Source of the DNA: a phage
Sequence record: NC_102605.1
DNA length: 50,633 nt
Strand: one strand, 5' to 3'
Below are positions 7,481 through 10,344 of the stretch, one piece after another. A model generated the notes under the pieces. It had not been told where the DNA came from. It searched no databases and saw nothing but the letters and a program-made list of their open reading frames with translations. The number at the start of each line of letters is the position of its first letter. Positions within the stretch are counted from its first letter, which is position 1. The position numbers were made by a program, and so were the translations under genes.

Positions 7481-7873
7481 ATGTTCTTATTAGATCTGTA
7501 TCGCTTTTGTGAGTCTCGCGAGAAATTCAACCGCCAGGAATTAGCAAGATTTATATTCCGCAACCGTGAATGTGAAAGGCTTGCAAAAAATGCGGGGGTA
7601 ACTCCCCGCTATTTCGCATCAAGTGTGAGTAAAGAGTTTATTTCTCGCCTTATGGGTTTTGGATATTTGGACGGCGTACACTGCGAATATTGGTGTAAAA
7701 ACAAGATGAAAAGACCGTTTAATTTCGAACTATATAGCCTGGAAGGTGATAAAAATCGTTATGTTTTGGAAATTATGAATATAGAGAAAATGAGCGATGA
7801 AGAATTATTCAGCAAGCCAGCATTTGATAGATCTTATTTTGAAAGAAAGTTCAGCAATGCAAATTCCGCATGA
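7481..7873 (+). CDS. Hypothetical protein (130 aa)
   Basis: ORF track. Confidence 0.5.
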   Translation: MFLLDLYRFCESREKFNRQELARFIFRNRECERLAKNAGVTPRYFASSVSKEFISRLMGFGYLDGVHCEYWCKNKMKRPFNFELYSLEGDKNRYVLEIMNIEKMSDEELFSKPAFDRSYFERKFSNANSA

Positions 7874-7994
7874 TGATTTTGTCTATGCGTTAATGCTGTT
7901 GCTTTATAGCGATATGCGAGCGTTTGTGGATCAAGAGCATCAACTGACAAATCATGATGGTGAATTGCTAATTCATGTTAGAAAATTTGAGTAA
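7857..7994 (+). CDS. Hypothetical small protein (~45 aa)
   Basis: Internal ATG of ORF 7797..7994; overlaps the end of the previous gene. Confidence 0.3.
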   Translation: MQIPHDDFVYALMLLLYSDMRAFVDQEHQLTNHDGELLIHVRKFE

Positions 7995-8025
7995 AAGAAA
8001 AGGCGGCTTATGCCGCCTTATTACG
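7995..8025. terminator. Bidirectional rho-independent terminator between converging plus and minus blocks
   Basis: aaggcggc-tta-tgccgcctt hairpin with A/T tracts on both sides. Confidence 0.7.
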
Positions 8026-8397
8026 TTTTAGTGTCCAACCTGCCAGCATACCAGCAATAAACATTAATATACCCATTGCGATTGCCTGAACGTTAAGACC
8101 GTCATTGTTGCGAATTTCTATTCTTTCCGCCGTGATGTTATCGGCCTTAATGCTTGAGGTGCTCACCTGCTTTTTATTTGACGTGTCAACTTGACCAACT
8201 GCCGATTCTTTGAATGTTGTTTCCTGCTTGCTTGATGTATCCTGCTTTGCGGTCACACCAACAGTCTGTTTCACATTCTCCGCTCCAGCCTGTGCCGTTA
8301 TATCAGGCTTGCTACCAATCAGACCAGGTAACACGCTTGAAGCTGAACAACCAGAAAGAGCAATGCACATCATAATAGCCAGTAATTTTCTTTTCAT
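8008..8397 (-). CDS. Unimolecular spanin (lipoprotein signal plus C-terminal TMD)
   Basis: Lipobox LSGC at the N-terminus, C-terminal hydrophobic helix, last gene of the lysis cassette. Confidence 0.65.
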   Translation of the reverse strand: MKRKLLAIMMCIALSGCSASSVLPGLIGSKPDITAQAGAENVKQTVGVTAKQDTSSKQETTFKESAVGQVDTSNKKQVSTSSIKADNITAERIEIRNNDGLNVQAIAMGILMFIAGMLAGWTLKRNKAA

Positions 8398-8897
8398 TTA
8401 TTCAGATCCATTACACAATATTTATATTCAACAGAGCGGCGATTCTTCAATCCCTTTGATTTTTCCTTTTTTCCCGTTTTCGGGTTCCGGTAATATGTCC
8501 AGTTCCAAAGCTCGCCACAACCACCATACAGATCACCATTGTTGATCTTCTTCAACATGGTTGATTTCCTGAATGCACCTGTTCCGGCGTTGAATGTGAA
8601 TGAGTACAAAGCCGCTCGCATAGAAATAGGAATATCAACCTTAACCGCTTTATCAACAGCGTCAGCCGCAACTTTCATATGCTTTGCAAGTAGCGCGTCA
8701 CATTCTCGCCTGGTATATTCCTTTCCTAATATCACATCCTTTCCTGTGATTCCGTGGCATACCGTCCAGATTCCTGCAATATCCTTGTAAGGTTTATACC
8801 TCACGCCCTCAATTTCTTCAATCAAGGGCGATGCCATCATTAAAGCCGCGCCCGTTATGGTAGCGGCTATTGTCTTTTTAATAGCCATTAAATTCAC
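8394..8897 (-). CDS. Endolysin, GH24 lysozyme-like with N-terminal SAR domain
   Basis: N-terminal weakly hydrophobic Gly/Ala-rich segment, then EG...Y.D...G..T lysozyme core. Confidence 0.7.
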   Translation of the reverse strand: MNLMAIKKTIAATITGAALMMASPLIEEIEGVRYKPYKDIAGIWTVCHGITGKDVILGKEYTRRECDALLAKHMKVAADAVDKAVKVDIPISMRAALYSFTFNAGTGAFRKSTMLKKINNGDLYGGCGELWNWTYYRNPKTGKKEKSKGLKNRRSVEYKYCVMDLNK

Positions 8898-8900
8898 TCC

Positions 8901-9116
8901 CTATTTTTGGTTAATTTTAAGAGCGGTTTTAAGATCTCCACACTCTAACGCCTCTCGGATCGCCTTGCTGTCACGCCACCTTAGCCACAAGCCAACAGCG
9001 CCGAAAATAACAAAGAATATGAATGTTAGAACCGCCAACATTAATTGACCAGTTGCAGCGCCAGAGAATGAAGCACCACCACTTGAATAAGTTGCAAAGT
9101 TAATAAATTCACGCAT
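8901..9116 (-). CDS. Holin (probable pinholin, 71 aa)
   Basis: Small protein with hydrophobic TMDs and charged C-terminus, directly upstream of the SAR endolysin. Confidence 0.6.
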   Translation of the reverse strand: MREFINFATYSSGGASFSGAATGQLMLAVLTFIFFVIFGAVGLWLRWRDSKAIREALECGDLKTALKINQK

Positions 9117-9228
9117 AACTAGATCCCTTAAAAATTAAAAAGTCAATATCAAAAAACAGTCTGATTATGTTAACGACAAAAACAAAAAAAGGCCAGCATT
9201 TAGCCAGCCTTTTTATGTGATAATTTAA

Positions 9229-10344
9229 TTATGCAATCATTTCAGGGTAGAACATGAAGCGCCCTATCTCGCCATATTCCTTATCATAGATAATTACCGC
9301 CGCTCTACGGCGTGAACGCCAACCGCCACGCGCCGCATAAGCATCTTTAGCCGCCATAGTGCTATGAACCTCAACAATGCCCAGGCTCGTTTCTGTGACT
9401 GTCTGATGATGCCAATGCCCCACATGCGCATACATTGAATTGGAGTTTCCGAAATCTTCCCGCCAATCCGCTGCACACATCATTAAAAGCGTTTCTGGCT
9501 TGCGTACAGTGTGACCATGATGATAAGCAAGGAACGTTTTTCCATATTGCGTGTGATGCACTACACGCGGAGAAACATCAACATTAACGCGTGGTTCATC
9601 TTCATACGCCGCCGCCATTGCAGCACGTAGCCAGATCATTCCTGATTGGTCGTGATTACCCTCAATGATCTGGATCTCAACTTCTTTATGCTTTTCAAGC
9701 ATACGGCTTACTGCTCTACGCGTGGCACGAATGGCAACATAAACCAGTTTTGCATAACGTGAATCCTGATCCAATACGTGACCGCTTGCAGGTGTGACGG
9801 CTTCTAATCCGTCGCTGTGAATCATATCACCACCAATCAGCAATACGGCCTTTTCGCTATTCGGCGCTTTATCAACTGCATAATCGAAAAACTCATTCAT
9901 TACGTTTTCCGCTGTTGCCGTGTCGTAATTCTCACCGCTTTCATGCTTATGAGCCATTGCGCCAATATGGATATCAAAGATCGGATATAACGCCAGCGTT
10001 TGCGAGTAATCAGTAATTTTTTCCGGTTGCGGCTTGATGCGCGGCACTTCTTCCGAAAATGCAGCCATAGCCGCTTGCATGATTGCCTCTAATTGCTCTT
10101 TGTCTTTGTGCGTCTTAATCCAGGTTAGTTTAGTGTTACCATTCTTATCAACTAACTTTGACTCGCCAATTACAGCAAAGCCAGGCGATCCGATTGTTGA
10201 TATTTCCCCACGTTTAGCCAATTTGCTGTGACGGTGCTCAACCTGTCGCAAGCTCATTCCGTACTTTTCCGCAATCTCACGCAGTTTTAAACCTGCTGCC
10301 CTTTCTGCAATAAGTTGTTCGTCCGTAATTTTTGCCGCACTCAT
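9229..10344 (-). CDS. HTH-domain protein fused to calcineurin-like metallophosphoesterase (371 aa)
   Basis: N-terminal HTH-like region; phosphoesterase motifs DIHIG, GGDMIHSD, GNHD, HHGH, GHWHH. Confidence 0.7.
   Translation of the reverse strand: MSAAKITDEQLIAERAAGLKLREIAEKYGMSLRQVEHRHSKLAKRGEISTIGSPGFAVIGESKLVDKNGNTKLTWIKTHKDKEQLEAIMQAAMAAFSEEVPRIKPQPEKITDYSQTLALYPIFDIHIGAMAHKHESGENYDTATAENVMNEFFDYAVDKAPNSEKAVLLIGGDMIHSDGLEAVTPASGHVLDQDSRYAKLVYVAIRATRRAVSRMLEKHKEVEIQIIEGNHDQSGMIWLRAAMAAAYEDEPRVNVDVSPRVVHHTQYGKTFLAYHHGHTVRKPETLLMMCAADWREDFGNSNSMYAHVGHWHHQTVTETSLGIVEVHSTMAAKDAYAARGGWRSRRRAAVIIYDKEYGEIGRFMFYPEMIA

Follow-up and report, generated by a model that had tools for sequence, protein, structure and literature searches.

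The endolysin R of phage 21 (R21) is the structural paradigm of SAR endolysins. Its SAR domain is not cleaved and is present in the full-length chain of structure 3HDE.

The prototype cassette of a holin, an endolysin and a unimolecular spanin (u-spanin) is found in phage T1, where the three proteins are gp13, gp12 and gp11 (NC_005833). When the T1 endolysin is expressed alone, it lyses E. coli, whereas the cytoplasmic endolysin of T7 does not (PMC10954549). T1 gp11 complements lambda RzRz1, and outer-membrane disruption has been shown for T1 gp11 only (PMC6139136). The cassette of phage TLS consists of holN, LysN and rzlA (AY308796; PMC11447400). The TLS record and paper label it "pinholin class 2 / SAR endolysin / u-spanin" (PMC11447400), and the same three-part label has been applied to T1-like phages generally (PMC6139136, PMC4559738, PMC13164509).

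The window, that is, the whole stretch of DNA analysed here (NC_102605.1; 50,633 nucleotides), is a complete Tlsvirus genome (Drexlerviridae), with an identity of about 97.7% to the Salmonella phages YSP2 and GJL01. Positions 8008-9116 are filled by exactly three tandem ORFs, which all lie on the minus strand and have the same three-gene architecture as in T1. They follow each other in the order holin, endolysin and spanin, and are succeeded by a terminator.

8901..9116, minus strand: holin gene, 71 aa, T1 gp13 / TLS HolN family; putative class II pinholin
8394..8888, minus strand: predicted SAR endolysin gene, 164 aa; encodes an R21-type muramidase, GH24 / T4-lysozyme-like
8008..8397, minus strand: predicted unimolecular spanin gene, 129 aa, T1 gp11 family

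These ORFs can be regarded as real genes, rather than chance, because of their matches in PHROGs and Pfam, the 99.7% identity of the cassette DNA to the annotated cassettes of GJL01 and YSP2, and their homology to T1. The holin matches phrog_2877 (3e-37) and the spanin matches the Rz-like spanin family phrog_1804 (5e-51). The endolysin is recognized by PHROGs at 5e-53 and by the Pfam family Phage_lysozyme (PF00959) at 5e-36. No model in Pfam or NCBIfam recognizes the holin or the spanin; PHROGs alone does so. Identity to T1 gp13, gp12 and gp11 is 59%, 60% and 39%, respectively. Two ORFs on the opposite strand (8210-8545 and 8539-8790) were treated as by-products, lying wholly within the well-supported spanin and endolysin genes.

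A preliminary description of this DNA had placed a three-gene lysis cassette at 8008-9116, which is borne out by three tandem ORFs with the features it described. With a probability of roughly 90%, the cassette is the late lysis operon of a T1-like siphophage, in which the three layers of the envelope would be attacked in turn. No evidence arose against the cassette as a whole. It is an ordinary, already published lysis module of a T1/TLS-like enterobacterial phage.

The borders of transcription can be placed as follows.

9186..9214, minus strand: hairpin (12-bp stem) and T-run, with TTGTTTTTGT after the stem; intrinsic terminator serving the exonuclease gene upstream
9145..9173, minus strand: candidate sigma-70-like promoter, TTAACA-17-GATATT; weak evidence
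8000..8019, both strands: bidirectional intrinsic terminator, AAGGCGGC-TTAT-GCCGCCTT; 8-bp stem with 6 G-C pairs, seen on both strands

The exonuclease gene occupies 9229-10344. Its terminator, in the 112-bp gap before the holin gene, delimits the lysis transcription unit on the upstream side. The cassette promoter at 9145..9173 is a guess from its position; the region holds 3 promoter-like matches against 3.9 expected from shuffles, which is not above chance. At the downstream end, the terminator overlaps the final spanin codons and closes the lysis cassette and the convergent plus-strand genes alike.

A gene of the SH3/DUF7244 type has been reported adjoining Drexlerviridae lysis cassettes (PMC13164509). 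Such an accessory gene was sought beside this cassette and is absent, the gap between the exonuclease and holin genes being non-coding. The whole window contains no tRNA and no match to an Rfam family.

The longest ORF of the endolysin (8897..8394) starts from a GTG and encodes 167 aa, while the ATG at 8888 gives 164 aa. The start is most likely the ATG at 8888, because a GGAG is found 8 nt upstream of it and the GTG at 8897 falls within this Shine-Dalgarno sequence, which overlaps the holin stop. The start codon decides whether the SAR domain gets recognized at all.

8820..8888, minus strand: endolysin residues 1-23, MAIKK (K4 and K5 basic) followed by the 18-residue charge-free SAR segment TIAATITGAALMMASPLI
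8763..8810, minus strand: catalytic triad E27-x8-D36-x5-T42, EGVRYKPYKDIAGIWT, which aligns with E35/D44/T50 of R21

In SAR endolysins, two or three basic residues at the N-terminus precede a weakly hydrophobic TMD that lacks charges and is rich in Gly, Ala, Ser and Thr (PMC9239132). The endolysin has both features, with K4 and K5 preceding an 18-residue stretch that has a mean Kyte-Doolittle (KD) hydropathy of 1.6 and is 56% Gly/Ala/Ser/Thr. The triad, which fits the E-x8-D/C-x5-T form, starts just 4 residues past this segment. The features of the segment and the E-x8-D-x5-T triad are kept in all of the distinct relatives examined (21/21). Aligned with the phage 21 R structures 3HDE/3HDF (E 4e-46), the endolysin is matched from residue 3 through the SAR domain. 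No Cys occurs in residues 1-23, either here or in any relative examined. Because of this absence, the endolysin is classed by its sequence as R21-type, and not as P1 Lyz-type, where a Cys in the SAR domain isomerises a caging disulfide.

A basic n-region followed by an h-region, with a Pro near the end of the segment, is also the layout of an ordinary cleavable Sec signal peptide. The endolysin would then be a soluble periplasmic enzyme, restrained in some way other than by tethering. However, a scan with the (-3,-1) rule found sites only at residues 13-15, which are too near the start of the protein and would give a signal of 13-15 aa; the end of the stretch reads M-M-A/S-P and has no compatible site. 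The rule is heuristic, as R21 has AXA motifs though it is uncleaved. Further, the family shares no conserved cleavage motif, the SAR domain of R21 to which the segment aligns is uncleaved, and the catalytic Glu lies only those 4 residues beyond the segment. Cleavage is very improbable and was rejected, given the lack of a usable site and the R21 alignment. The same two observations support the preliminary description, which had read this N-terminus as an SAR-like segment instead of a cleavable signal. That the enzyme is closely homologous to R21, itself an SAR endolysin, is strongly supported, and export, tethering and release are predicted from this.

A single-sequence AlphaFold2 model of the endolysin was unusable (mean pLDDT 42). 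In one near-identical public record, the endolysin gene begins inside the SAR domain.

The holin gene has a single start codon, with AAGGGA 7 nt upstream. Its product can be divided into three parts.

9048..9107, minus strand: holin residues 4-23, FINFATYSSGGASFSGAATG, charge-free and Gly/Ala/Ser/Thr-rich; candidate SAR-like TMD1
8982..9047, minus strand: holin residues 24-45, QLMLAVLTFIFFVIFGAVGLWL, the sole strongly hydrophobic TMD; mean KD 2.7, dG about -3.5
8904..8981, minus strand: holin C-terminal tail, RWRDSKAIREALECGDLKTALKINQK, with 7 K/R and 4 D/E; predicted cytoplasmic

Class II pinholins have two TMDs, the first of them an SAR-like segment able to leave the membrane. The topology here is one strong TMD and a marginal N-terminal segment comparable to TMD1 of S21 68. 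The best 19-mer of this segment (residues 4-22) has a mean KD of 0.5 and a Gly/Ala/Ser/Thr content of 68%; its dG, summed on the Hessa scale, is about +8 kcal/mol. The same measures for TMD1 of S21 68 are 0.64, 63% and +6.4. The segment (about 20 residues) is charge-free in nearly all relatives, with one divergent clade carrying Asp6/Asp23. It directly adjoins the TMD, with a Gly-Gln turn only and no inter-TMD loop. The TMD carries an F38-G39-x-x-G42 motif whose columns are invariant in the family alignment, and the C-terminal tail is the most conserved part of the family. A dual-start antiholin was sought and rejected for this allele: there is no in-frame start upstream of 9116, and no Met before residue 26.

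The preliminary description had reasoned that an SAR endolysin implies a pinholin as its partner. This step is not valid. P1 has an SAR endolysin that works with a canonical holin (PMC6116005), and Mu, which lacks a holin, employs a releasin (PMC9239132). Because of these arrangements, a pinholin cannot be deduced from the presence of an SAR endolysin alone. The holin gene does lie directly upstream of the SAR endolysin gene in the same operon, a position that is necessary for a pinholin but not sufficient. Similarity to S21 68 was sought at two levels. BLASTP gave no alignment between the two proteins, and a 12-sequence profile of the holin family compared with S21 68 using hhalign gave a probability of 0.4%. 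In Pfam, the holins of the cassette and of T1 have no holin match, whereas S21 68 itself matches PF04971 at 7e-36. A pinholin makes nanometre-scale holes, which depolarise the membrane but do not let a folded cytoplasmic endolysin through. No hole-size experiments on T1/TLS-type holins were found in the searchable literature.

It is possible that the holin is a single-TMD protein with N-out/C-in topology and not a pinholin. Such a protein would make large non-specific holes or be a distinct depolarising holin, and its N-terminal segment would always be periplasmic. Only one TMD is clear, and the TLS record states "1 TMD predicted using DeepTMHMM" for its own holin. The missing homology to S21 68, the missing loop and the very unfavourable insertion energy of the N-terminal segment (the +8 kcal/mol given above) all fit with this reading. 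So do the function of SAR endolysins with canonical holins (PMC6116005) and the weak toxicity of the T1 holin when expressed by itself (PMC10954549). Set against these is the conservation of the charge-free segment in nearly all relatives, with a composition and hydropathy very near those of S21 68 TMD1. The N-terminus also has the S21 68 pattern of one basic and one acidic residue, and specialists class T1-type holins as class II pinholins (PMC4559738, PMC6139136, PMC11447400). Since active S21 68 also has its TMD1 outside the membrane, both models reach the same end state. A single-TMD holin that is not a pinholin is unlikely on balance, though it keeps some weight.

The pinholin assignment is best described as an accepted prediction for the whole T1/TLS holin family, which is present in hundreds of sequenced phages. 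There the label rests on predicted topology and on association with SAR endolysins. In the three-part label of the preliminary description, the SAR endolysin and the u-spanin are strongly supported, while the pinholin is not demonstrated by sequence.

The third gene encodes a short protein with a signal at one end and a TMD at the other.

8347..8397, minus strand: spanin lipoprotein signal, MKRKLLAIMMCIALSGC, with lipobox LSGC at 8347-8358 and predicted acylated Cys17
8089..8346, minus strand: spanin periplasmic domain, residues 18-103 (86 aa), Ser/Thr/Lys/Gln-rich, 0 Cys
8029..8088, minus strand: spanin C-terminal inner-membrane TMD, QAIAMGILMFIAGMLAGWTL, residues 104-123, KD about 2.0
8011-8028, minus strand: spanin basic tail KRNKAA, following the TMD

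The ATG of the spanin gene and the stop of the endolysin gene share bases (ATGA), an arrangement that suggests translational coupling. The +2 residue is Ser, not Asp (MKRKLLAIMMCIALSGC is followed by SA), and this predicts sorting to the outer membrane. The lipobox LSGC is identical to that of T1 gp11 (PMC6139136). The relatives' cassettes that were examined share this architecture. It had been described beforehand as an N-terminal lipobox and a C-terminal TMD in one polypeptide, and both are found, as LSGC with Cys17 and as residues 104-123. The lack of a lipobox in the third gene would have counted against that description; on inspection, LSGC is present.

Membership of a u-spanin family has been defined as an identity of 40% or more to a member, over 40% or more of the length; the family of T1 gp11 includes TLS among its listed phages (PMC6139136). 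Identity to T1 gp11 is 39% over 130 aa (E 3e-29). The protein shares 127/129 residues with TLS RzlA (2 differences), and it is through this listed member of the T1 family that it passes the threshold. Weak matches to phrog_1119 of the Cor family in PHROGs (E 0.006) and to TraV lipoprotein in NCBIfam might suggest an outer-membrane lipoprotein of another function, for instance Cor-like superinfection exclusion. Both matches are driven by the lipoprotein signal, however, and the spanin PHROG match is at 5e-51. The protein has a C-terminal TMD, which Cor does not have, and a homologue in T1 gp11, the protein that complements lambda RzRz1. Its gene also stands last in the lysis cassette, in translational coupling with that of the endolysin. 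A Cor-like identity is scarcely credible and was rejected on the spanin PHROG match, the T1 gp11 homology and the C-terminal TMD. That the third gene encodes a u-spanin of the T1 gp11 family is strongly supported, every family feature at the level of sequence being present.

A mechanism for lysis can be proposed on this basis. Gene structure, homologies, motifs and operon layout are derived directly, and export, release, hole size and membrane fusion are taken from homologues. The 71-aa holin would build up in the inner membrane with its charged C-terminal tail in the cytoplasm. When triggered at the programmed moment, it would collapse the proton-motive force, most likely through small "pinholes". 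Meanwhile, the endolysin would be exported via Sec, and its weakly hydrophobic SAR segment, remaining uncleaved, would hold it inactive on the periplasmic side of the membrane. Once the membrane is depolarised, this segment would exit the bilayer and refold into the body of the lysozyme, as that of R21 does. Because the SAR segment is without Cys, disulfide caging would not be involved, and activation would occur by refolding rather than by disulfide isomerisation. The E27/D36/T42 muramidase would then break down the peptidoglycan. The u-spanin would span the envelope, with its lipid anchor at Cys17 in the outer membrane and its C-terminal TMD in the inner membrane. Once the murein meshwork is removed, it would disrupt the outer membrane, probably by fusing both membranes.

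The cassette is already known, and the additions made here are small. They are the endolysin start at ATG 8888 and a swapped holin allele without a dual start. Beyond correct annotation the importance is slight: this is a standard Drexlerviridae lysis module, and it supports classification in Tlsvirus.

The closest known cassettes are those of TLS, YSP2 and GJL01, which have the same gene order, flanking exonuclease and helicase genes, and terminators. The TLS endolysin is about 97% identical to that of the cassette, whereas TLS HolN is only 61% identical to the cassette holin. The patch that diverged from TLS is 8830-9130, which covers exactly the holin and about the first 20 codons of the endolysin. 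By this comparison with TLS, the holin allele has been swapped and is diverged. An M1/M7 dual start has been proposed for the TLS holin and is missing from this one. Here, 12 nt separate the holin stop from the ATG of the endolysin, while the two overlap in TLS. A more speculative proposal, and an improbable one, is that T1/TLS-type holins form an independent class non-homologous to S21, with the N-terminal segment as an SAR-like trigger. The holin allele and the SAR-coding 5' end of the endolysin gene would then co-evolve and be exchanged as a unit. If true, this holin-SAR unit would point to matched timing of holin triggering and SAR release, and not to a generic pinholin.

Compared with T1, the sizes of the three proteins are 71/164/129 aa here and 71/162/133 aa there. 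T1 has extra genes between the exonuclease and holin genes, including one of the SH3/DUF7244 type described for Tunavirus (PMC13164509), where this cassette has 112 bp of non-coding DNA.

Full-length homology to the endolysin, including the SAR domain, is found in phage 21 R (3HDE/3HDF) and in RrrD of the DLP12 prophage (4ZPU). The likeness to the R21 type extends to the E-x8-D-x5-T triad and to four conserved Cys positions, which are all outside the SAR domain. Relative to R21, the endolysin has lost 6 residues between its SAR segment and catalytic Glu and has a 6-residue insertion near the C-terminus (YRNPKTGKKEKSKG). Its charge-free stretch is also less hydrophobic and shorter (18 aa versus about 24 aa). 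Because the SAR segment is short and the deletion precedes the catalytic Glu, details of activation may differ from those of R21.

Unlike S21 68 (PF04971), the cassette holin has no loop between its segments, no dual-start antiholin, and no detectable similarity in sequence or profile. The two proteins are nonetheless alike in design. Both have about 70 aa, and the N-terminus of each carries a single acidic and a single basic residue. In each, a weakly hydrophobic segment rich in Gly/Ala/Ser/Thr is followed by a hydrophobic TMD with small-residue motifs and then by a basic C-terminal tail. Finally, each is encoded directly upstream of an R21-type SAR endolysin.

Three tandem open reading frames occupy the minus strand of 8008-9116, which the ORF listing shows to be otherwise empty of substance. 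A preliminary description had placed a pinholin, an endolysin of the SAR type and a unimolecular spanin (u-spanin) in this interval. Both the coordinates and the description proved right, and the strand and the endolysin start can now be added.

Features of the lysis cassette and its flanks
9214-9186, hairpin terminator directly after the upstream exonuclease gene
9173-9145, candidate promoter-like TTAACA-17-GATATT (the region has no more promoter-like matches than chance would give)
9116..8901, minus strand, holin ORF, 71 aa
8897..8394, minus strand, endolysin ORF, 167 aa if the start is GTG, 164 aa if it is ATG 8888
8397..8008, minus strand, spanin ORF, 129 aa
8000-8019, bidirectional hairpin terminator common to the cassette and the convergent plus-strand genes
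7797-7994, plus strand, ORF of 65 aa, annotated in GJL01 only
7481-7873, plus strand, ORF of 130 aa, named HTH protein in Escherichia phage TLS

Hairpin terminators thus flank the lysis unit on both sides. AAGGGA lies upstream of the holin ATG. GGAG is found 8 nt 5' of the endolysin ATG at 8888 and is overlapped by the holin stop TAG, and the endolysin stop overlaps the spanin start as ATGA. With GGAG as its Shine-Dalgarno sequence, ATG 8888 is the likely endolysin start; GTG 8897, where the longest ORF begins, lies within GGAG and is an unlikely start. In the record of Salmonella phage GJL01 (locus L002, KY657202, 1995-2441), the endolysin gene is 447 nt long and starts within the SAR domain, so that the export signal is hidden in that annotation.

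The accessory gene SH3/DUF7244 is reported from 188 of 522 genomes in Drexlerviridae, a family in which it sits beside many cassettes (PMC13164509). It is absent from the exonuclease-holin gap at 9117-9228; these 112 bp hold the terminator and the possible promoter only. On the other side, the two plus-strand ORFs at 7481-7994 converge on the cassette; they are read in different frames and share 77 nt.

The endolysin matches Pfam Phage_lysozyme (5e-36). Among solved structures it is closest to phage 21 R (3HDE is the full-length protein, 3HDF the form lacking the SAR domain) and to DLP12 RrrD, with E values of 4e-46 to 3e-45. The alignment with R21, the SAR endolysin of phage 21, begins at residue 3 and therefore covers the N-terminal domain besides the catalytic body, where the triad E27-x8-D36-x5-T42 aligns with R21 E35/D44/T50. 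At the N-terminus, MAIKK leads into a charge-free segment of 18 residues, TIAATITGAALMMASPLI; its mean Kyte-Doolittle (KD) hydropathy is 1.6, and 10 of 18 positions are Gly, Ala, Ser or Thr. By the working definition quoted in PMC9239132 this segment qualifies as a SAR domain, and the proposed SAR-like N-terminus stands. Since Cys is absent from it, refolding as in R21 is the expected mode of regulation, not the disulfide caging of P1 Lyz.

Alternatively, the N-terminus might be a cleaved signal peptide. A (-3,-1)-rule scan found candidate signal-peptidase sites at residues 13-15 only, where cleavage would leave an implausibly short signal peptide. The stretch ends M-M-A|S-P, with Met at position -3, and the scan found no conserved site among the N-termini of the relatives examined. 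The scan thus yields no plausible site, although it is only a heuristic, since R21 has AXA motifs yet stays uncleaved. The SAR reading gains support by analogy from experiments on T1 gp12, the T1 endolysin, which is 60% identical to the window protein: expressed alone, gp12 lyses E. coli within 2 h, as an exported endolysin would, whereas cytoplasmic T7 endolysin does not (PMC10954549).

The third gene had been described as a unimolecular spanin, and this assignment holds. The lipoprotein signal ends in the lipobox LSGC, with Cys17 as the predicted site of acylation; from Ser at +2, the Lol system is expected to sort the protein to the outer membrane. A periplasmic segment of 86 residues, rich in Ser, Thr, Lys and Gln and free of Cys, leads to a C-terminal TMD (residues 104-123) and the tail KRNKAA. 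The protein matches phrog_1804 (5e-51) and is 39% identical to the T1 u-spanin gp11 (E 3e-29). The gp11 family has 28 members, TLS included; gp11 complements lambda RzRz1, its LSGC lipobox is functional, and periplasmic Cys is absent from u-spanins (PMC6139136). All these sequence-level features, the lipobox among them, are present in the window protein and are also kept in cassettes from 39 related IMG/VR loci.

The holin matches phrog_2877 (3e-37) and is 59% identical to the T1 holin gp13. Its one strongly hydrophobic TMD spans residues 24-45 (mean KD 2.7) and contains an invariant F-G-x-x-G motif; the C-tail, net basic and highly conserved, should be cytoplasmic. Residues 4-23 form a charge-free N-terminal segment, joined to the TMD solely by Gly-Gln; it is charge-free in nearly all relatives, except in one divergent clade with Asp6 and Asp23. 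The best 19-mer (residues 4-22) is 68% Gly/Ala/Ser/Thr, with a KD of 0.5 and a Hessa-scale sum, computed without regard to position, of about +8 kcal/mol. TMD1 in the phage 21 pinholin S21 68 gives similar values (0.64, 63% and +6.4), the sequence used having been validated by a full-length PF04971 match. Such a composition agrees with the "class II pinholin" prediction in the literature.

The pinholin had originally been deduced from the SAR endolysin. As stated, this deduction is invalid, because the SAR endolysin of P1 has a canonical holin as its partner (PMC6116005), Mu uses a releasin without a holin, and only "most" SAR-endolysin phages encode a pinholin (PMC9239132). The N-terminal resemblance to S21 68 speaks for the label, but Pfam, BLASTP and profile comparison detect no homology to S21 68. 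The TLS record gives one TMD by DeepTMHMM for the TLS holin, the mere Gly-Gln between the two segments of the window holin also calls for caution, and a literature search found no hole-size measurement for T1/TLS-type holins. We regard a pinholin as the somewhat likelier identity, and give the remainder of the cassette interpretation a probability above 0.9. With this caveat, the observation is confirmed and its interpretation supported.

By analogy with phage 21 and T1, we infer the steps beyond gene and motif structure. The holin would build up and trigger, collapsing the proton-motive force. The SAR segment would then leave the bilayer and the muramidase refold into its active form, degrading the peptidoglycan. 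Finally, the u-spanin, tethered to both membranes beforehand, would be freed from the murein meshwork and disrupt the outer membrane, probably through fusion of the two.

The cassette is already known and is annotated in near-identical genomes. Its DNA is 99.7% identical to Salmonella phages GJL01 and YSP2 and 88.8% to TLS. The two window halves are about 97.7% identical to YSP2, GJL01, KKP 3830 and Henu4_2, with matches that cover 90-96% of each half. The window thus represents the complete genome of a YSP2-type Tlsvirus, about 50.6 kb (Drexlerviridae, Tempevirinae). Neither tRNA genes nor Rfam family matches were found in 1-50633. The curated TLS record labels the three homologues "pinholin class 2", "SAR endolysin" and "u-spanin", as does the TLS re-annotation paper (PMC11447400), and the cassette of T1 and T1-like phages is described likewise (PMC6139136, PMC4559738, PMC13164509). 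The exonuclease-holin-endolysin-spanin core occurs in 508 of 522 Drexlerviridae genomes (PMC13164509).

One record, OR786094.1 "Streptococcus phage MBBL140" (stated host S. agalactiae; database matches H16 and H26), is 95% identical over about 24 kb to the window, an enterobacterial Tlsvirus, and its u-spanin cassette is of the Gram-negative type. The record has probably been mislabelled or stems from contamination. Some 20 "Campylobacter" records match as well, at lower identity.

Relative to TLS, 8830-9130, comprising the holin gene and the first ~20, SAR-coding endolysin codons, reads as a mosaic patch: DNA identity drops to 48-77% here, from at least 95% to either side of this 5' part of the cassette. 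The holin protein is only 61% identical to TLS HolN, whereas the spanin differs from TLS RzlA at 2 of 129 residues. A further diverged patch lies at 7600-7780 (77-88% identity). In the related loci L023 (49,788-bp contig) and L028 (51,092-bp contig), the signal peptide and lipobox of the spanin are different ones (MKWLKLLYPFAVIIFACFIVAC), while in the C-terminal part compared the TMD and tail are nearly identical to the window protein; the spanin N-terminus therefore also appears to be swapped as a module.

The window holin (MREFINF..., 9095-9116) has a single start. Like T1 gp13, it lacks the M1/M7 dual-start motif of TLS, which has been proposed as a holin/antiholin device (PMC11447400). Compared with R21, the SAR segment of the endolysin is shorter and its hydrophobicity lower, 6 residues are deleted between this segment and the catalytic Glu, and a small insertion is present in the C-terminal part.
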